From positions 32,001-96,000 of the IMG/VR virus record IMGVR_UViG_2974628631_000001: a DNA stretch of 64,000 bases; one strand, written 5' to 3'. This DNA comes from a virus (Duplodnaviria; Caudoviricetes). Positions 1,684-44,771 of the stretch are shown here, one piece after another. Position 1 is the first letter of the stretch; every line of letters starts with the position of its first letter. The position numbers were made by a program, and so were the translations under genes. The notes beneath the pieces were generated by a model, which saw only the letters and a program-made list of their open reading frames with translations, made no database searches and was not told the origin of the DNA.

Positions 1684-4600
1684 GTAGAATTCTTCTAAGA
1701 GACCTAGAGCCAGGAAGGCTTTACCACATTCAGGCAAGAGCCACGAATGGTGAACAGTCTTCTCAGTGGTCACAGCTTTGGGACCTTCAGACAACCAGCG
1801 ACATTATGCCACCAGCCGCACCTACGGGCCTTTCTTGGGTCGTTGAAGGTACGGCTTTCAAGGCTGTCTGGACAGGACCAACTCTGAATCAGGATGGTTC
1901 AGACCTGCGTGATTTCAAGGATTTCCAGGTCAAGATTTATTCTCCAGCAGCTCCCGGAACAATTGTTACATACTACACGACATCTGCCCGATTTGATTTG
2001 CCTTTTGAGAATAACGTAAACTCATTCGGCACACCACGTGCACAGGTAACAATTGAGGTTAGAGCCAGAGACAACACAGGAAACCTTTCAACATCTGCAA
2101 CAGCCACGGCAACAAATCCACCACCAGCTAACGTGACTGGATTTACAGCTACCGGAATCACTGATGCGATTTCCGTTAAGTGGAATGCAAACGCAGACAC
2201 AGACCTAAAGTATTACAAGGTTTGGCAGGGAACTGCGGCGGGGTCTGAGAACACTCTCGTATACACAGGTCTAGCTACCTCATTCGTATTCGATACCCTG
2301 TCAACATCACCTCAGTATTTCAAGATTGTAGCGGTTGACGTATTCAATTCAGAGTCAGCAACAGCGGCAACAGCCAGCGCAACTGCTAAGTCTTCCCTAG
2401 CCGTAGATGGAACTCCGCCTGCCGCTCCAACTGGAGTAACTGTTACATCAGCTCTAGACACATCTGACCCTTCTGGAGGAAGGGCTTATATTGACGTGTC
2501 TTGGACTGGTGTAGCTGACACAGACCTACAGAATTACAGCGTTCGATACAGCACTGGAACTACTTGGGAATACATTGATGTCCCTGAGGGAGTTACAACA
2601 GCTCGAATCAATGGTCTTCGTCCAAACACCAATTACAATGTAGCAGTTGCTGCCGTTGATTATTCTGGTAATTCAAGTGCTTATGTAAATGCTGGCACCT
2701 ATCCAATTCTGACAGCCAAGGATACTACAGCTCCAGCAGCTCCAACCGGAGTAACTGTTGGCGCGGGTGTTACCACAATGACTGTTGCTTGGACAGAGAA
2801 TACTGAAAACGATGTTAAGAATGGTATTGGTACTTATGAAGTACAGCTAGATACCGTTAATACATTTAATTCAGGAAATCTAATTACTAAGCAGAATTCT
2901 GGAACAATTGTTGCATTCACCAACCTGACATCTAACACGACCTACTACACAAGAGTTCGTGCAATTGATGCTACAGGAAATGCCGGGTCTTATTCATCAA
3001 TCGTTTCTGGCACCCCACGATATGTAGCCAATGCTGATATTCAGGCGGGTACAATTAGTGGTGACAAGATTACCGCAGCAAGCATTAACGGTGACCGAGT
3101 AGTAGCCAACACCCTTGACGCCAACGTGCTCAAGGCCAACACGACGTTCTCTCAGAACCTCAATGTTGGCAGTACGTTCACCATGGCTTCCAGTGGTATT
3201 ATGAAGAGCAGCAATTATGTGGCGGGTGTCTCTGGATGGCAGCTAACAAATACTACTCTTGAAATTAATCAGGGTACCATCAAGGCGGCAGCGCTTCAGC
3301 TTCAGAATGGTCACAACATGCTTCACCCTGCTTATGCAGATTGGGAGTTTGTGAAGTCATGGTACACGAATAACCTCATCACATTCAATGATGGAGGAGT
3401 TTCGACATGGGCCATTTCAGATGCTACAGATGTTACTGGTAAGTACAATACTCAGTGCATCAAGACTTCGTGGACTGGTGTCGGAACGTTCTCAAGAACG
3501 TACATGGGACCAACCTACACGTCATACAATGTTCAGCTTGAAGCCAATACGGACTACATTTTCTCTGGTTGGGTTTATGTAAAGACAGGCGCGGGTGCTA
3601 AGACAGCAGCCCTTGGAATTAAGCTAGCAGATGCTACATTCCCTGGTCCAGTTGCGAATACATCAATTCCTGCTACATCCACATGGACTCGCATTTGGGG
3701 TACATTCAATTCAGGTACTCAGACAAGCGCTGAGCTTTACCTTTCACAGTACACTTCAGGAGACATGTACTGGGATGGTCTACAGCTTGAGAAGAAGGTC
3801 ACCGCAGATACCGTTCCGTCTCAGTGGAAGCCACCAGGCTCTACATCTATCGATGGTGGAATTATTCGCACTGGTGAAATTCGTTCTACAGCAGCCGCAA
3901 GCGGCCTTGCTGGTCAACCAGCATGGTCAATCAATGTTCAGGGTAATGCCCAGTTTGGTGATGCTAACATTCGTGGACGCCTTGTTGTTGGAGACATCAA
4001 TAATCCATCAGCGGATGGTGTGAACTCAAAGATTCAGTCTGCCAATTATTCGGTAGGAACATCCGGTTGGATTGTCCGTAATGATGGATATGCCGAATTT
4101 CGTCAGCTAGCAGTCAACTCAATCAAGGTTACCGCTTTCGACTCTCCATTCCAGAACACTGCAAATGCTAAGTTGTTCGATTATATGCAGGATGCGAATC
4201 TTTGGCTACAGAGCGGTTCTGTTCAACAGAAGACCGACCCTGGCGCTTACTCTGCCGAGTCTTTGTTCGAATTTACCGGGCCGGGTTTGGTGTTGAGAAA
4301 TGGTACTGGTGTTAAGCCTATCGCTTATGACCCAACTATTCTATACCGCATTTCCGCTCGTGTTCGTGCCTTTACCGTTGCTACATTGAATAGTAATGGA
4401 ACATTTGAAGGAAACAACACAACCGGATGGACAGTAGACGCTACAAACGGAGCCACCATTGCGGCAAGTAACACCTACGCAAGCACAGGAACCTACTCAA
4501 TGAGAATGACTTCTGGTGCTTCTACTGGTGCTTCTTATCGTGCATGGACAAACGTTATTGTAAAGCCGGGGTATAACTACACAATCAATGCCAAGATTAA

Positions 4601-30323: not shown

Positions 30324-32135
30324 ATGAATCTAGACTTTAACGACCTACTGAATATGCTCGATGGAGAGGACTTTGAAGAGCGTCCTGTCTCCATCGAAGA
30401 ATTCGTACAGTCGGAAGACTATTTGAACCTTCCTACACTGTCCGAGAATCAGTACAAGCTTATCAAGGCAAGCAGCCAGATTTACAAGAAGACAACACTA
30501 GTTGCTCTTTATGGTGAGCTGGAGGCAGAAAAGCGCTTTGCAGAAACAATGAACGAGGTTATCTTCCAGCTTGGAAAGGGTTCTGGTAAGGGATACACAT
30601 CCTCTATTGCCTGTGCCTACATCGTTTATCTGCTCATGTGTCTAAAGGACCCGGCCAAATATTATGGCAAGCCACCTGGTGACCACATCGCTATTCTGAA
30701 CATTGCTATTAACGCCGCACAGGCTCAGAACGTCTTCTTCAAGTACTTCAAGCAGCGCATTACCTCAAGCCCATGGTTTGCAGGTAAGTACACCGAGAAG
30801 GCTGGAGAATTCCAGTTCGACAAGAATGTATTTGTTTACTCAGGTCACTCAGAGCGTGAGGCTTGGGAGGGTTACAATGTAATCTTCGTTATCCTTGACG
30901 AGATTTCCGGTTTCGCTCTGGATTCAACTTCAGGTAATGAGCAGGCAAAGACAGCTTCGGCAGTTTACAAGATGTACAAGCAGTCTGTCACTTCTCGATT
31001 CCCTGAATTCGGTAAGGTAGTTCTCCTGTCGTTCCCACGATTCAAGAACGACTTTATCCAGCAGCGCTATGCAGATGTTATTGCTGAGAAGGAAACAATT
31101 ACACGCACATACCGTTTCAAGGTAAACCCGGACCTTCCTGAGAATACGGAAGGAAATGAATTCGATATCGAGTGGGAAGAAGACCACATCATTTCCTATC
31201 GGATTCCTAAGGTGTTTGCTCTCAAGCGGCCAACATGGGAAATCAATCCTCTCATCAAGCTTGACGACCTGATGGCAGCGTTCTACGATGACCCCATCGA
31301 CTCGCTGTCTCGTTTCGCCTGTATGCCACCTGACGCCATTGACGCGTTCTTCAAGGACCGTGCCAAGATTGAGTCAGCCTTTTCCTCACAGTCCTCTCTA
31401 AAGGAGGACAACAGCTTCCGCCCGGACTTTATTCCGAACCCTGAGAAAAGGTACTACGTCCACGTGGACCTTGCCCGAGTGCACGACCATGCGGCGGTTG
31501 CTCTGGCTCACGTGGAAAAGTGGGAGCAGAGAAATATCGGCGGTAACTTGACAGAGCCAGCACCCGTAGTTATCGTGGACCAGGTTCGTTATTGGACCCC
31601 TAGCAAGACAAAGAACGTAGACTTTACAGAGATTCGTGAATATATCCTGAGCCTCAAGAGGCGCGGGTTCAATATTCGTCTCGTCACGTTTGACCGCTGG
31701 GAGTCTGCTGACACCATGCAGTACCTCAACGACCGTGGACTCAGGGCAGAGCGTCTGTCTGTGGCAAAGAAGCACTATGAAGACTTTGCCATGGTTATTG
31801 CCGAGCAGAGAGTTGTAGGTCCAAAGATTGAGCTATTGATTGAAGAGCTTTTGCAGCTTCGTATCATGAATAACGACAAGGTAGACCACCCTAGAAAGGG
31901 AAGTAAGGACTTGTCCGATGCGGTTTGTGGGGCTATCTTCAACGCAATTGCACATACTCCACGAAACCTTGATGAAACAATTGAAGTCAAGACATTGGAG
32001 TCAGTCCATAGAGAAGTAAGGCAGAACAAGCTAGATAAATATGAGCAGATGAAGGCAGATGGTGTCATTCGTGCACCTAAGCGACAGATGCCACAGGAGC
32101 TTGAAGATTTTCTTGCCAGAATCTCTACCATCTGA
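30324..32135 (+). CDS. terL: terminase large subunit
   Basis: GKGSGKG Walker A, ILDE Walker B, HVDLA, FDRW, KDLSDA nuclease motifs. Confidence 0.9.
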   Translation: MNLDFNDLLNMLDGEDFEERPVSIEEFVQSEDYLNLPTLSENQYKLIKASSQIYKKTTLVALYGELEAEKRFAETMNEVIFQLGKGSGKGYTSSIACAYIVYLLMCLKDPAKYYGKPPGDHIAILNIAINAAQAQNVFFKYFKQRITSSPWFAGKYTEKAGEFQFDKNVFVYSGHSEREAWEGYNVIFVILDEISGFALDSTSGNEQAKTASAVYKMYKQSVTSRFPEFGKVVLLSFPRFKNDFIQQRYADVIAEKETITRTYRFKVNPDLPENTEGNEFDIEWEEDHIISYRIPKVFALKRPTWEINPLIKLDDLMAAFYDDPIDSLSRFACMPPDAIDAFFKDRAKIESAFSSQSSLKEDNSFRPDFIPNPEKRYYVHVDLARVHDHAAVALAHVEKWEQRNIGGNLTEPAPVVIVDQVRYWTPSKTKNVDFTEIREYILSLKRRGFNIRLVTFDRWESADTMQYLNDRGLRAERLSVAKKHYEDFAMVIAEQRVVGPKIELLIEELLQLRIMNNDKVDHPRKGSKDLSDAVCGAIFNAIAHTPRNLDETIEVKTLESVHREVRQNKLDKYEQMKADGVIRAPKRQMPQELEDFLARISTI

Positions 32136-39389: not shown

Positions 39390-39461
39390 GCATGTAAGCC
39401 AGGGATAAGCTAGGCGGGCCTGTAAAGCCCTACCTCGTTGGTTCGAATCCAACTACATGCA
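39390..39461 (+). tRNA. second tRNA with GTA anticodon, short variable loop, atypical D-arm
   Basis: GCATGTA/TACATGC; GGGC-CTGTAAA-GCCC. Confidence 0.65.
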
Positions 39462-40569: not shown

Positions 40570-40865
40570 GGGGTAGCTCAGGTTTCGACTTTGCTAATCA
40601 GGGATATAGACGCAGCCGTTCTTTGGTAAGAGAACTGAAACAGACCAAAACCATAAATGCAAACTCTAAGAATGCATCTGCCTACGCCCTAGCGGCGTGA
40701 TGGCCGGGTTAGTGGGGGACCTAGGAACAGAATGCCCCACCTAAAATAGAGCTTCGGCTCAACTTGTGAAGATAGTGTGCAACACCAGTTAGTGTGATTG
40801 ACATGGCTGTACATCGGATATATGCTAGATAGTGAAGGACGCGGGTTCGATTCCCGCCTACTCCA
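40570..40865 (+). ncRNA. ssrA: tmRNA; tag ANSKNASAYALAA* (40659-40700)
   Basis: 5' GGGGTAG..GGTTTCGAC; 3' GCGGGTTCGATTCCCGCCTACTCCA with G3:U; tag ending YALAA. Confidence 0.92.
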
Positions 40866-40880
40866 CAAGATAGGAAGAAT

Positions 40881-41060
40881 ATGAAAGTATCAAATCTCTA
40901 CATCTACGGTTCCAGTGAGTTCCTTCGTAGACTAGAAGAAGAGTATGTTTTCCTGGGAAGGTCTGTTAGACTTGAAGAGGACCGACTTATCGTCTTTGCA
41001 CTTCCACGAAGGAAGAAGAACAACAAGAAGTCTCCGAAGGGCAAGTCACGCAGGCGTTGA
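40881..41060 (+). CDS. 59-aa protein with basic tail
   Basis: Hand translation MKVSNLYIYGSSEF...KGKSRRR. Confidence 0.5.
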   Translation: MKVSNLYIYGSSEFLRRLEEEYVFLGRSVRLEEDRLIVFALPRRKKNNKKSPKGKSRRR

Positions 41061-41086
41061 CAAGGCCGGACGGGGTTTGATAGACT
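41057..41086 (+). promoter_or_regulatory. promoter driving the structured RNA array
   Basis: TTGACA-18-TAGACT. Confidence 0.7.
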
Positions 41087-41092
41087 GTAGTT

Positions 41093-41635
41093 GTTGGTCA
41101 GTACGAGTTAGCTGAATGGTAACTCACGTAGGCGCTCTATTAGGCTGACCAAGCTTGTACCCAAACGAACCATACGCTGTAAGTCCCCCTAGTCGTCACG
41201 GACGAAGGGGCAGGGCAAAATTTCCTGGCCAAGGGTGGTTGTAGGGTATTGACAGTTCGCACGTGACTCTGATACTGTCAAGTTGTAGCACACGGACAAG
41301 GCTTAGGCGGATGGAACAAGCCGGTGGGATGCGAGTGGTGATGCTACAATAACACGGGAAGTAAGCCATCTATACCTAAGACACTGCTTCCTAAGTTGCT
41401 ATCCATAAGGTAATAAACCGTGAGGGAAACCACAGCGGATAATCTTTCCCAGCTAGGTATAGACGTGGGTACCTGAGGATGGCAAGCTTCTACAGCAGGC
41501 AGGTCGAACGCCTTAGACAAGTATTCAGGGCAATGAATAAAGATAGTAGCACCCATTCGACAGGGTATAAAGCTACCGCCTGATTGAATACACGCTGTAG
41601 GCTGTGATAGCGACCGGAAAAGCTATCACAAGCTT
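41093..41635 (+). ncRNA. candidate polycistronic array of ~7 structured RNA modules
   Basis: No + strand ORF; abutting closed stems joined by AAGCTT/AAGTT linkers. Confidence 0.6.
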
Positions 41636-41661
41636 CTAAATTCAAAGCTAGAGGAGTTATC

Positions 41662-41958
41662 ATGGCTACCGGCAAGGAGCGCGGCTTCAAGGATTGGCAC
41701 GGAAGTAAGGAATTCCGGCGCAGCGCTCGCAATTACACTGAATCCGATACCATCAATCGTGGTCGCAAGAAGAAGAACACGAAGAAGTGGTGCAAGGGTG
41801 TTGTTGGTCGTAAGCACACTCTTGCGCTCTTTAACAAGTACTCCTTCTCTCGCAATTACAAGTGCATTAAGTGTGGTAAGGAAATTTGGCACATCAGTAA
41901 TCGAGAAGACTACAATTACGAAGAGAAGAGTCCGATGGAATGGGCTGATTACCAGTAA
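41662..41958 (+). CDS. basic zinc-binding protein
   Basis: GAGGAG RBS; WCKG..H..CIKCG. Confidence 0.6.
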   Translation: MATGKERGFKDWHGSKEFRRSARNYTESDTINRGRKKKNTKKWCKGVVGRKHTLALFNKYSFSRNYKCIKCGKEIWHISNREDYNYEEKSPMEWADYQ

Positions 41959-42007
41959 TCCCGGTCAACTAGTTGGACACACAATCTCTCTGACCGTATA
42001 ATGGATA

Positions 42008-43612: not shown

Positions 43613-43721
43613 CTGCTACCCTATGTAGAACCGTGTAGGGGCTATGCAATGTATCAGGGGGTTGATATCCCTAACGGTTCAAGCTACCATGGAAGTCCAA
43701 GAGTTAATACAAGGAGATGAA

Positions 43722-44771
43722 ATGACTCACGTTTCAGCAATCTTTTCCGTGGACGACCTGAACAAGGCAATTGAGGACGGTTGGGTCAGGGTCCAGACGA
43801 ATGAGGACAACACCCTTTCTATTTACAATTACAGCGAAAGTGCCCAATACAAGCGTTACTGGAATGATGTAACTCTGAATTGTCGGGGCTTGATTCTCGA
43901 CAATGACATGAACATTATTGCTCGTCCGTGGAAGAAGTTCTTCAATTATGGAGAGCGTCCACTGAACATTTCCACAGATGACCCGGTTGAGGTGACGGAC
44001 AAGAAGGACGGCTCTTTGGGTATCCTTTACCGTCACCCGATGACTGGTGATTGGAAGGTTGCGACTCGTGGGTCTTTCCTTTCTGAGCAGGCTCTTCACG
44101 CAACTGCATTGTTCAATGACCGATACAGCCACATTGCAATTCCTACTGAGGGTCTTACCTGTCTCTTTGAGATTGTTTACCCTGAGAACCGCATTGTTCT
44201 GGACTATGGCGAGATGGATGACCTCATTCTTCTTGGTTCGGTACAGAACAAGTATGGCTGGTACTATGGTCCAAACGAGACAGCAGCAATGGTGAACTGG
44301 ACTGGTCCTGTCACTGAGGTGTTCGAGTACCGCACGATGAACGAGGCGTTTGCGGACTACCGTCCAAATGCTGAGGGTCTGGTAATTCGGGCGGGTAGTG
44401 AGATGCTGAAGTTGAAGCAGGCAGACTACGTAGCTTTGCACAAGTTGGTTACGGGTCTGAACGAGCGTGCAGTATGGGAGCGCTTGCGGGATGGCGAGAC
44501 GCGTGATAGTATCTGTGCATCACTTCCTGACGAGTTCCACGGGTTTGTTGACAAGACGGCTGATGCTCTTGAGAAGGAGTTCCAGTCAATCTACTTGACG
44601 GCACACCAGAACTATTGTACTGTTCTGAACAAGATGGGAGCGGGCTACAGCCGCAAGGACTTTGCTCTTGAGGCAATCAAGTACCCCAACCCTTCTCTAC
44701 TGTTCAACTTCCTTGACAACAAGTCGAATCGTCAGTCAGTATGGGACATGATTCGACCGAAGGGTGAGTAA
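43722..44771 (+). CDS. RNA ligase 1 (T4 Rnl1-like)
   Basis: CRGLI, RPWKKFFN, KKDGSL (motif I), ATRGSF, FEIV, EGLV, LKLK. Confidence 0.92.
   Translation: MTHVSAIFSVDDLNKAIEDGWVRVQTNEDNTLSIYNYSESAQYKRYWNDVTLNCRGLILDNDMNIIARPWKKFFNYGERPLNISTDDPVEVTDKKDGSLGILYRHPMTGDWKVATRGSFLSEQALHATALFNDRYSHIAIPTEGLTCLFEIVYPENRIVLDYGEMDDLILLGSVQNKYGWYYGPNETAAMVNWTGPVTEVFEYRTMNEAFADYRPNAEGLVIRAGSEMLKLKQADYVALHKLVTGLNERAVWERLRDGETRDSICASLPDEFHGFVDKTADALEKEFQSIYLTAHQNYCTVLNKMGAGYSRKDFALEAIKYPNPSLLFNFLDNKSNRQSVWDMIRPKGE

Follow-up and report, generated by a model that had tools for sequence, protein, structure and literature searches.

The gap at 41093-41635 of the window (the whole 64,000-nt stretch of viral DNA analysed here) is probably an island of non-coding RNA within the translation-support part of a phage genome, from which stable small RNAs would be made alongside tRNAs. 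One of its elements, module 4, belongs on sequence comparison to a widespread phage RNA family absent from Rfam. The phage is a cluster-BE-type Streptomyces phage, with Beuffert as its nearest relative (95%). The gap sits downstream of the tmRNA and a 59-aa gene, within a + strand array of 30 tRNAs; the tRNA/tmRNA genes are on the + strand in 31 of 31 cases, and an Rnl1-type (T4 type) RNA ligase is encoded at 43644-44771 (PF09511, E 2.3e-15). The usual annotation of a phage tRNA array lists the tRNAs and leaves the spacers between them empty; here, one such spacer holds several selected RNA structures, and the module 4 family has a bearing on the question of why translation-support islands are found in large lytic phages.

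Searches for tRNA and tmRNA (RF00005, RF00023; ARAGORN) found none within 41093-41635 and detected 31-32 around the gap. An Rfam 15 scan, run both with the gathering scores and with E up to 10, took in ROOL, GOLLD, RNase P, 6S, SRP, YrlA, ribozymes and riboswitches and matched no family in the gap, and the module 4 motif was likewise unmatched in seven loci with its long and short forms (E up to 1), in agreement with the first-pass annotation, which had recognised no known family. In the window, the scan at E up to 10 returned only three minus-strand matches at chance level (E 1.4-8, 14-17 bits, versus gathering scores of 35-50). A self-similarity search found no repeat of any gap module elsewhere in the window, and the 125.7-kb genome contains a single match to the module 4 model (CM R1). 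The elements of the gap are as follows, with per-module MFE z scores.

41057-41086, + strand: sigma-70-like phage promoter, TTGACA-18-TAGACT, 10 of 12 consensus matches
41094-41156, + strand: module 1, 5'-terminal hairpin TTGGTCAG/CTGACCAA followed by AAGCTT; stem kept; z -2.55
41168-41241, + strand: module 2, 74-nt multi-stem RNA closed by AACCAT/GTGGTT, from a nine-sequence comparison; z -0.24
41249-41281, + strand: module 3, hairpin whose stem covaries and whose loop, UCGCACGUGACUCUGAU, is conserved, from the comparison and the promoter pattern; z -1.39
41283-41349, + strand: module 4, minimal family member (67 nt); CM R1 match at 41282-41351, 79.5 bits, E 8e-22; z -1.17
41350-41395, + strand: linker with TCTATACCTA at 41369-41378, a 10-bp perfect complement to 41454-41463
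41396-41489, + strand: redrawn module 5, 90-nt elaborated hairpin (41396-41485; TTGCTATCC/GGATGGCAA plus AGGTA/TACCT) followed by AAGCTT; z -3.00
41490-41602, + strand: module 6, fold of about 110 nt; z -3.14
41603-41635, + strand: module 7, 9-bp hairpin followed by AAGCTT; z -5.28

All nine stems proposed in the first-pass annotation are present. The seven of at least 7 bp are perfect (7/7), and two 6-bp stems were found by direct reading (GTACCC 41157-62 / GGGTAT 41244-49; GCCATC 41365-70 / GATGGC 41478-83). The AAGCTT and AAGTT junctions that it described were located at 41151-56, 41484-89 and 41630-35, and at 41280-84, respectively. Perfect stems of at least 7 bp numbered 7 versus 2.40 +/- 1.52 in 500 dinucleotide shuffles (5/500 reached 7), and those of at least 8 bp numbered 5 versus 0.61 (0/500 shuffles); this stem richness was matched by 10 of 115 other 543-nt tiles of the window. 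The MFE z of the whole region was -1.45 on the + strand and -0.44 on the - strand, and the two best-conserved units, modules 2 (z -0.24) and 4 (z -1.17), carried no thermodynamic signal. Comparison among relatives supported the closing stems of modules 1, 3, 4 and 7 and one inner stem of module 6. It upheld the idea of separately folded units, originally drawn as back-to-back closed domains, and moved two of the seven domain boundaries: the closing stem of module 2 is AACCAT/GTGGTT rather than GTACCC/GGGTAT, and GCCATC/GATGGC does not close module 5, its 3' arm pairing instead with TTGCTATCC at 41396-41404. The stems CTATACCTA/TAGGTATAG, CTACAGC/GCTGTAG and GTATTCA/TGAATAC are invariant in the three phages that have them.

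Modules 2 and 3 (41168-41281) are a single unit kept in nine BE-like sequences, with compensatory double changes at 15 of 31 pairs and long invariant single-stranded runs in module 2 (CAAAAUUUCCUGGCCAAGGGUGGU); the corresponding model (CM R2) matched 7 of 100 sources, in the seed lineage only. At the place of module 1, Blueeyedbeauty has a deleted interior and retains the closing stem and AAGCTT, and Faust-type phages have a different hairpin followed by AAGCT. Modules 5 and 6 are present in only three closely related phages (the window phage, Beuffert and Blueeyedbeauty); exact-word scans of viral contigs found them in Blueeyedbeauty only, and BLAST against 1.8 Mb of fetched loci found them in Beuffert and Blueeyedbeauty only. 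Across the three phages, redrawn module 5 has compensatory changes at three pairs, and three more pairs changed on one side still pair. The inner stem of module 6 (GTAGC 41546-50 / GCTAC 41572-76) is supported by a G-C to A-U change in Blueeyedbeauty, and its outer stems never vary. Stem changes in module 7 are compensated in both relatives, and 27 nt separate this module from the start codon of the following gene (ATG 41662, with the RBS AGAGGAG at 41650-56). TCTATACCTA at 41369-41378 could form a pseudoknot with 41454-41463 in the next hairpin, both arms being invariant in the three phages.

This perfect 10-bp long-range complement is one of several features that would fit a single ornate ROOL/GOLLD-like RNA spanning the whole 540 nt, or the 333 nt between the first two AAGCTT sites (41157-41489), with the modules as its domains. 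RNAalifold places about 33 pairs between 41380 and 41505, and the order 2/3 then 4 is kept in six of the nine sequences with module 2 (window, Beuffert, Blueeyedbeauty, Faust, TunaTartare and L241). RNA-library contigs from two metatranscriptome studies (compost X19, X20; soil X9) cover 41168-41499, 41168-41482 and 41175-41469, running unbroken across modules 2-5. ROOL and GOLLD likewise lie beside tRNAs in phages, according to PMC5737381. However, the contigs are unable to prove a single molecule. They come from relatives and may contain DNA. Their confinement to 41168-41499, with the flanking genes uncovered, is a weak hint of transcription of the gap RNAs, and their zero depth on 40993-41133 and 41510-41960 is no evidence of silence. 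One large RNA is, in our judgement, unlikely, and less likely than separate units, though conceivable for 41157-41489: dozens of loci have module 4 by itself, with tRNAs 14-20 nt away; modules 2 and 3 occur without module 4 in Tomas, Mandalore and L240, and in Tomas they stand by themselves with tRNA-Gly on one side and tRNA-Arg on the other; all but three phages lack modules 5 and 6; the whole-region z is only -1.45; and ROOL, GOLLD and every other Rfam family went unmatched. These distributions support the part of the first proposal in which the units are separable modules of a cassette; the roles suggested there (decoys, sponges or antitoxin mimics) gained no support from the analysis.

The promoter anticipated upstream of the gap is kept in Beuffert and Blueeyedbeauty, and its start site would fall near 41092-41094, at the first base of the module 1 stem. 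The window contains 28 TTGACA-N16-19-TAnnnT sites versus 2.81 expected (0/100 shuffles reached 28), of which 26 are on the + strand. Many phage promoters in the window carry inverted repeats between the hexamers. In the window lineage, module 3 doubles as TTGACA-18-TACTGT (41249-41278), a promoter-like site that reads as placed for transcription start at module 4; Tomas and Mandalore keep the module 3 hairpin with a different stem, GTAAC/GTTAC, and without TTGACA. A TTGACA-type promoter-like site precedes module 4 in all seven aligned BE-type contexts. In BE1 phages such as NootNoot it lies so near that a start 6-8 nt past it would fall inside the P1 stem of module 4, and the reading of an own promoter may therefore not hold everywhere.

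Only two + strand ORFs of at least 30 aa touch 41093-41635 (40945-41115, 56 aa, mostly upstream; 41479-41583, 34 aa), and most gap ORFs are broken in relatives, consistent with the earlier description of the gap as non-coding. A 70-aa minus-strand ORF is open in all three phages; in a phage with 90.0% DNA identity across 41146-41636, the aa identity of this ORF is 83.6% over 67 aa. This open frame, the two promoter-like sites inside the gap and the inverted repeats common between promoter hexamers would be compatible with a gap that holds no RNA feature and is either a DNA-level spacer of promoters, operators and terminators or a set of short protein-coding genes. We find this barely credible, since compensatory changes keep far-apart stems paired across loops of 30-130 nt, which is not operator-like, and neighbouring tRNA/tmRNA genes lie on the strand of module 4 in 817 of 817 cases; as for coding, the other ORFs are broken in relatives, and the 70-aa ORF changes mostly at the protein level.

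No terminator-like site (GC-rich hairpin and U run) was found in 41093-41635, where hairpins are followed by AAGCUU instead. The AAGCTT junctions are not peculiar to the cassette; they proved to be part of a genome-wide punctuation by hairpin + AAGCT(T/A). On the + strand, 17 of 49 AAGCT[TA] sites directly follow a perfect hairpin of at least 5 bp, versus 4.6% at random positions and 2/38 for AAGCT[TA] in the minus orientation. Module 7 is one of the 17. Module 1 and the 41396-41485 hairpin conform by direct reading, their loops exceeding the limit of the scan; in the gap, too, the 3' arms end 0-3 nt before AAGCT[TA], on the + strand and between units. The 14 other sites in the window lie mostly 20-40 nt before a gene start. 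The three gap signals frame non-coding units, not protein genes, and two of the three are long elaborated hairpins (59 and 90 nt), in contrast to the GC tetraloop hairpins of 14-22 nt at other sites. The hairpin + AAGCUU signal is now tied to the framing of non-coding units in these phages.

Module 4 has the layout P1, CGGACAAGGCUUAGG, P2 (3 bp and R.R), a UGGAACAA loop, GUGGGAUGCGAGUGG and P1'. It has every part of the family definition (P1, CGGACAAGGCUU(A/U)GG, a 3-bp P2 with an R.R pair, UGA...AACAA, GUGGGAUGCGAGUGG and P1') and departs from the consensus at one loop base (UGGAACAA versus UGAAACAA). Members, in short and long forms of 67-150 nt with an optional P3, combine two near-invariant junction strands with a covarying closing stem and a covarying inner stem; among about 30 invariant nucleotides, the core has T-loop-like pentads (UGAAA and UGGGA) and GG runs, seven of them, that are invariant. 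The exact motif gave 85 instances (43 distinct) and CM R1 gave 89 matches across 98 sources, making this a family new to Rfam with at least 84 distinct members. Its carriers range from Streptomyces and Arthrobacter phages to low-G+C uncultured phages (~35-66% G+C). In the cultured-phage records, the site is unannotated in all 60 listed among the 76 with a match.

Covariation in the family is clear. Pairing was found in 91.8% of cells versus 52.7% in shuffles (0/500 reached 91.8%), a percentage inflated by the use of a CM alignment fitted to the structure of the model, and the covariation score was 0.880 versus 0.199, with slid controls at most 0.156. P2 pairs 2 and 3 are Watson-Crick in 43/43 with four pair types each, and the fourth P2 position is A.G or G.A in 42/43. 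The pairing energy of a member's own P1 flanks is -10.75 kcal/mol, versus -3.12 for swapped flanks (28 distinct flank pairs). The seed of the search was the 3' 16-mer only; the 5' junction, which played no part in seeding, is kept in 79-81 of 84 members at nearly every position and in 74-77 at three, and one position splits A/T. A pairing of GGCUU with AAGCC was dropped because it is broken in Wakanda and BillNye while C-NN/NN-G covaries perfectly. Likenesses by eye to 5S rRNA, 4.5S RNA, the 23S GTPase centre, Y RNA and hammerhead cores had no Rfam match and were rejected. Matches in Vibrio phages, probably due to the tRNA flank in the query, disappeared with a motif-only query, for which 76/76 records were Streptomyces phages.

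In bacteria, the 3' 16-mer gave at least 120 genome matches, about the chance level estimated for 596 Gb, and the full motif was present in 0 of 120 fetched loci; the 16-mer alone is non-diagnostic there. With 32 candidates scored per genome, CM R1 yielded no full match among five bacterial genomes, where one partial match reached 27.7 bits, or among 151 genomes from the genus to which G001 belongs. It also had no match in a human-faecal phage record (L245). Clustering of 1628 ORFs from 84 loci revealed no partner protein, in that no family was broadly common to low- and high-G+C loci; the only ones common to both were GIY-YIG endonucleases (11/84 loci) and the Rnl1-type ligase (9/84). We found no published description of the gap RNAs; the catalogue of 10,006 viral candidate RNAs in PMC10690425 may include them.

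Members of the family occupy "tRNA slots" of phage tRNA arrays. Same-strand tRNAs were found in 82 of 85 loci (817 tRNA/tmRNA genes on the same strand, 0 on the opposite one); in 46/85 loci a tRNA or tmRNA ends no more than 60 nt ahead of the core, often 14-15 nt, and in 36/85 a tRNA begins no more than 60 nt past its end, often 20 nt. The identities of the flanking tRNAs vary. The aptamer-like build of module 4, a variable closing stem around near-invariant loops, suggests that it could be a riboswitch-like aptamer or put-like antitermination element in a cis-regulatory 5' leader, the hairpin + AAGCUU signals being attenuators or terminators. The promoter-like site in 7/7 BE-type contexts would suit such a leader, as would Enygma, where module 4 is directly followed by an RBS and gene, and the lack of a terminator-like site between the gap and the 98-aa gene. 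Yet what lies downstream of module 4 varies. In the window phage it is further RNA modules; in L021, a related BE-type contig, it is a vWA-TerF-like gene; Wakanda and BillNye have tRNA-Asn there, and other loci have tRNA-Ser, -Arg, -Ile or -Met, among others. In low-G+C contigs module 4 lies in the middle of the array, spaced by 14 nt from the preceding tRNA and by 20 nt from the following one, which leaves no room for an expression platform; no consistent set of regulated genes was found. The gene beyond the whole gap also differs, encoding a 98-aa protein in the window phage and Beuffert and a Band-7 protein in Blueeyedbeauty and Faust, and for this reason the gap RNAs appear not to be tied to one specific downstream gene. 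We therefore consider a leader function rather improbable.

Small self-cleaving ribozymes typically have such a size and shape (a core of 45-120 nt, closed P1, optional P3 and about 30 invariant junction nucleotides), and module 4 is phage-borne and located at processing junctions. Module 4, and perhaps other modules, might then cleave itself as a ribozyme and so contribute to cutting of the polycistronic tRNA transcript. This seems very improbable, as Rfam ribozyme families were unmatched (E up to 10 in the window, up to 1 in the seven loci), no cleavage-site signature could be named, and tRNA-processing enzymes already suffice at tRNA-flanked sites.

We propose instead that transcription of the island runs rightward, with a start at the strong promoter (41057-41086) and probably another at the second promoter, in the module 3 hairpin. 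The transcript would carry, in order, the 5' hairpin, a 115-nt lineage-restricted RNA (modules 2 and 3), the 67-nt module 4, the 90-nt hairpin and the fold of about 110 nt, and the hairpin + AAGCUU punctuation of the phage would end three units (at 41151-56, 41484-89 and 41630-35). By analogy with tRNAs and the RNAs of the T4 tRNA cluster, the units may be cut from the precursor and persist as stable small RNAs, with cuts at the punctuation sites and, where tRNAs flank the units in other phages, by tRNA-trimming enzymes. Because its junction strands are near-invariant in phages of ~35% and ~60% G+C, the folded core of module 4 may act in trans by recognising a target that very different hosts share; the most plausible one is a component of the tRNA/translation machinery.

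Ribozymes, aptamers and RNAs docking on universal machinery typically show such conservation. The module 4 family is therefore a well-defined candidate for new RNA biochemistry, short (67 nt) and amenable to experiment. Tentatively, and with a probability far below that of the island itself, module 4 could represent a new functional RNA class acting on a universal tRNA/translation component, or a new small ribozyme, within a gap that serves as an "RNA toolkit". If so, its compact core, possibly built on the GG runs and T-loop-like pentads, might grip the elbows or CCA ends of tRNAs in the manner of T-box and RNase P RNAs, or might alternatively decoy a tRNA-targeting defence nuclease. The toolkit, together with the tRNAs, tmRNA and RNA ligase, would then sustain translation in a defending host.

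Among known systems, riboswitch aptamers and small ribozymes resemble module 4 in having a variable covarying closing stem, an optional inserted stem and near-invariant junction strands; unlike riboswitch aptamers, module 4 comes without a consistent downstream gene or expression platform. ROOL (RF03087) and GOLLD (RF02032) are phage/prophage ncRNAs frequently near tRNAs, as stated in PMC5737381. They are ~580-800 nt long with few invariant nucleotides, in contrast to the 67-150 nt and about 30 invariant nucleotides of module 4; in one contig (L101), a ROOL RNA lies ~540 nt from a module 4 member. In phage T4, the RNAs rnaC (species 1) and rnaD (species 2) undergo transcription and processing together with the tRNAs. 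The T4 record annotates them as "small, stable RNA" of 119-139 nt and has rnaD ending 1 nt from tRNA-Arg, with rnaC a further 6 nt along. Homology was not detected between them (T4 70908-71171) and the gap RNAs by CM R1 (filters off) or R2 at E up to 10. The likeness is one of arrangement: the T4 RNAs and the gap RNAs (module 4, and modules 2 and 3 in Tomas) are alike on the tRNA strand and abut a tRNA, and T4 and the window phage both have an RNA ligase gene near the small RNAs.

The gap at 41093–41635 (+ strand) is a real feature, understood only in part: an island of phage non-coding RNA. Most notable in it is module 4, which represents a small RNA family that is new, widespread and very strongly conserved. 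The source record, of which the window is positions 32001–96000, is 125,726 bp long with direct terminal repeats. BLAST with 40870–41700 matched 76 records, from Streptomyces phages only, the nearest being Beuffert (94.8% identity, 100% of the query), followed by Blueeyedbeauty (87.1%, 92%), both cluster-BE-type phages of the genus Annadreamyvirus, Stanwilliamsviridae. The gap is without any annotated feature in either record, and the excerpted BE-cluster genome announcement mentions tRNAs and tmRNA only (PMC5764925). On the + strand of the window ARAGORN listed 30 tRNAs plus one tmRNA, and on the minus strand none.

Features in and around the gap.
40570–40868, + strand: tmRNA, upstream of the gap
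40881–41060: gene for a 59-aa basic protein, between the tmRNA and the gap
41094–41156, + strand: module 1
41168–41241, + strand: module 2
41249–41281, + strand: module 3
41283–41349, + strand: module 4
41396–41489, + strand: module 5, redrawn
41490–41602, + strand: module 6
41603–41635, + strand: module 7
41662–41958: gene for a 98-aa protein, phrog_12074 (function unknown), directly downstream of the gap
43644–44771: T4 Rnl1-type RNA ligase (PF09511, E 2.3e-15), in the tRNA region, 2 kb beyond the 98-aa gene

The 59-aa protein, which lacks Pfam and PHROG matches and ends in a Lys/Arg-rich tail, is a candidate RNA-binding partner; synteny of its gene with the tmRNA and module 4 extends across BE-type phages and viral contigs L036 and L105.

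The promoter proposed in the first-pass annotation, TTGACA-18-TAGACT, is present at 41057–41086. Promoters of the TTGACA type are ten-fold enriched in the window (28 versus 2.81 expected), nearly all on the + strand and often just before tRNAs. Many TTGACA-N17-TAnnnT promoters (e.g. 32139, 34525, 47416, 55856, and 58443) hold an inverted repeat that runs, as in module 3, from a 5' arm overlapping the -35 hexamer to a 3' arm that stops immediately upstream of the -10; these repeats may be operator-like, or may form RNA hairpins in read-through transcripts. As the same annotation held, the gap has no meaningful + strand ORF; most of its ORFs on both strands are interrupted in relatives, and one 70-aa minus-strand ORF stays open, changing mostly at the protein level. 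The nine stems it drew are all in place. Perfect stems of at least 8 bp number five versus 0.61 in shuffles (0/500 reach five), and those of at least 7 bp seven versus 2.4 (5/500 reach seven). Because seven or more stems of at least 7 bp also occur in 10 of the 115 other tiles from this hairpin-rich genome, and the whole-gap folding z-score is only −1.45, stem counting is suggestive, not decisive; the decisive evidence for the predicted structures is comparative. No known family had been recognized, and an Rfam 15 scan likewise returned nothing at gathering score and, at E values up to 10, three chance-level minus-strand matches in the window and nothing more.

BLAST found the 60-nt piece of module 4 alone, at 94–100% identity, in dozens of BE phages; its position there differs by ~15 kb in genome coordinates, and it is never annotated. 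Across seven aligned contexts the core is invariant and the closing stem differs yet pairs in every phage (TTGTAGCA/TGCTACAA, TTGTAACA/TGTTACAA, AGAGAGCA/TGCTCTCT, ACAGCA/TGCTGT); in BillNye an extra hairpin is inserted in one loop. Scanning IMG/VR with the 3' 16-mer of module 4 returned 109 stretches, and the full motif was present in 85 loci, named phages included, as 43 distinct sequences. A covariance model (CM) built on 14 short forms gave 89 matches, 84 of them distinct, in 98 sources.

Elements of the module 4 RNA family.
P1, closing stem: 10–12 bp, often with an A-rich internal loop
5' junction: CGGACAAGGCUU(A/U)GG
P2, inner stem: 3 bp plus an obligatory closing purine-purine pair
Loop region: UGA, an optional P3 domain of up to ~75 nt, then AACAA
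3' junction: GUGGGAUGCGAGUGG

P2 pairs 2 and 3 are Watson-Crick in 43/43 sequences, each with four pair types, and the position next to the P2 pairs is A.G or G.A in 42/43. P1 flanks fold at −10.75 kcal/mol with their own partners versus −3.12 when swapped. In the CM alignment, which is fitted to the model, 91.8% of cells pair versus 52.7% in shuffles, and the covariation score is 0.88 versus 0.20 in shuffles and at most 0.156 in slid controls. The 5' junction, which was not part of the search seed, is kept in 79–81 of 84 sequences at nearly every position and in 74–77 at three, while one position splits A/T. The genome has a single copy, that in the window, which scores 79.5 bits and is minimal in form, with one substituted loop base. 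Long forms (e.g. L030 7854–7952, L083 3565–3661, and L114 7017–7113, all viral contigs) have a conserved sub-motif of their own in P3, a covarying stem (GTAG/CTAC, GTGG/CCAC, GAGG/CCTC) around GAGAU-N3-5-AUCGUU, suggesting that the complete RNA is the long form and that the window's copy has been trimmed.

Same-strand tRNAs accompany module 4 at 82 of the 85 loci (817 on the same strand, 0 on the opposite). In 46/85, a tRNA or tmRNA ends no more than 60 nt before the core, typically 14–15 nt, the length of the P1 arm, and in 36/85 the next tRNA starts within 60 nt downstream, typically after 20 nt. The upstream neighbor may be tRNA-His, Arg, Phe, Ile, Thr, Trp, Leu, or tmRNA, and the downstream tRNA Ser, Arg, Ile, Asn, Met, or others; module 4 therefore fills a generic tRNA slot. 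That the gap is a cis-acting leader regulating the downstream gene is a reading weakened by two observations: module 4 sits sandwiched between tRNAs in other phages, and close relatives differ in the downstream gene.

The G+C content of module 4 loci ranges from about 35% to 66%. Among cultured phages, all 76 records matching by motif-only BLAST were Streptomyces phages, and the CM additionally matched Arthrobacter phage Atuin, which has a long form (E 6.8e-11). Module 4 was not found in 5 + 151 bacterial genomes searched, with 32 candidates scored per genome, and the full motif was present in 0 of 120 fetched genome loci with the 16-mer, which occurs there by chance. In 9/84 loci a member of the Rnl1-type ligase family is encoded no more than a few kb from module 4. 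No partner protein emerged from the gene neighborhoods. Unusual tRNAs were also seen: a 144-nt tRNA match beside the L083 member (3401–3544) may carry an insertion, and odd tRNAs adjoining module 4 in contigs L106 and L073 (upstream in both) and L007 include some called with a four-base anticodon (cgaa) and one with the amber-reading anticodon CUA. In the window itself, an Rfam tRNA match at 39390–39461 (35.3 bits), between tRNA-Tyr and tRNA-His and not listed by ARAGORN, may be degenerate or non-canonical.

Modules 2 and 3 (41168–41281) are, by sequence comparison, one unit of a narrower family common to nine sequences, namely the window, Beuffert, Blueeyedbeauty, Faust, TunaTartare, Tomas, Mandalore, and two IMG/VR contigs. 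RNAalifold predicted 31 pairs from these nine, 15 with compensatory double changes. The long single-stranded runs of module 2 are invariant, and its closing stem, first drawn as GTACCC/GGGTAT, is replaced on comparison by AACCAT/GTGGTT (74 nt). The module 3 hairpin has a covarying stem (TGACAG/CTGTCA, TGACAC/GTGTCA, GTAAC/GTTAC) and a conserved loop; in lineages with module 4 next it also reads TTGACA-18-TA(C/G)TGT, a promoter-like site placed so that transcription would begin with the first P1 base of module 4. In Tomas the unit lies between tRNA-Gly and tRNA-Arg, without the promoter hexamer. The CM of this unit matched only within the lineage of its seed sequences (7/100 sources).

Besides the window, modules 5 and 6 were found only in Beuffert and Blueeyedbeauty, by exact-word scans of viral contigs and by BLAST against 1.8 Mb of module 4 and related loci. 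The three-way alignment contradicted the GCCATC/GATGGC stem originally drawn for module 5 and instead paired TTGCTATCC (41396–404) with GGATGGCAA (41477–85), plus AGGTA/TACCT, giving a 90-nt hairpin (z = −3.00) with compensatory double changes at three pairs and one-sided, still pairing changes at three more. In module 6, GTAGC/GCTAC is the sole stem tested by variation, and its pairing is kept. Several pairs of the module 7 stem (z = −5.28) are changed in both relatives with pairing kept, and module 1 in Blueeyedbeauty has lost its interior and kept its closing stem. The reading of the gap as one large RNA is weakened because the modules occur independently.

The AAGCTT junctions noted in the first pass are present, but listing all AAGCT(T/A) sites revealed a genome-wide signal between genes rather than a cassette-specific one: GC-rich tetraloop hairpins run right up to AAGCT(T/A), most often 20–40 nt upstream of the next gene's start (e.g. 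45033, 47412, 47776, 49003, 51048, 53024, 54009, 54218, 60991, 61547, 61906, 62777, and 63843). A perfect hairpin of at least 5 bp directly precedes 17/49 + strand sites, versus 4.6% of random positions, and 2/38 sites in the minus orientation; CAAGCTT occurs 36 times in the window versus 10.9 expected. Module 7 is one of these sites; module 1 and the redrawn module 5 follow the same layout with long loops. RNase E has a reported preference for RN↓WUU, which AAGC↓UU fits, and for this reason we prefer to read the punctuation as a candidate processing site. Most likely, the island is transcribed together with the tRNAs, its transcript would be cut into units at the punctuation and at tRNA-processing sites, and these units would act as stable RNAs.

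Four RNA or possibly-RNA runs, assembled contigs possibly with DNA, were compared with the gap. Two compost metatranscriptomes contained a relative's contigs over 41168–41499 and 41168–41482, with a 16-nt insertion exactly in the variable loop of module 4, and one soil metatranscriptome contained two 151-nt pieces with 0–1 mismatches over 41175–41469; depth was zero at 40993–41133 and 41510–41960 in all three. This coverage, from contigs possibly with DNA, is a weak hint, consistent with a stable RNA lying between the first and second AAGCTT sites.

No description of these RNAs was found in the literature; the motif could be among the supplementary data of the viral csRNA catalogue (PMC10690425). 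T4 offers the closest analogues by position, two small stable RNAs (rnaC and rnaD) that abut tRNA-Arg in its record; neither the module 4 CM nor the module 2+3 CM matches them. ROOL and GOLLD are far larger than the modules and do not match them; they share with module 4 a tRNA-adjacent phage niche (PMC5737381). In the low-G+C contig L101, a full-length ROOL RNA (338 bits; 3265–3839, minus strand) shares a tRNA array with a module 4 member, ~540 nt apart.
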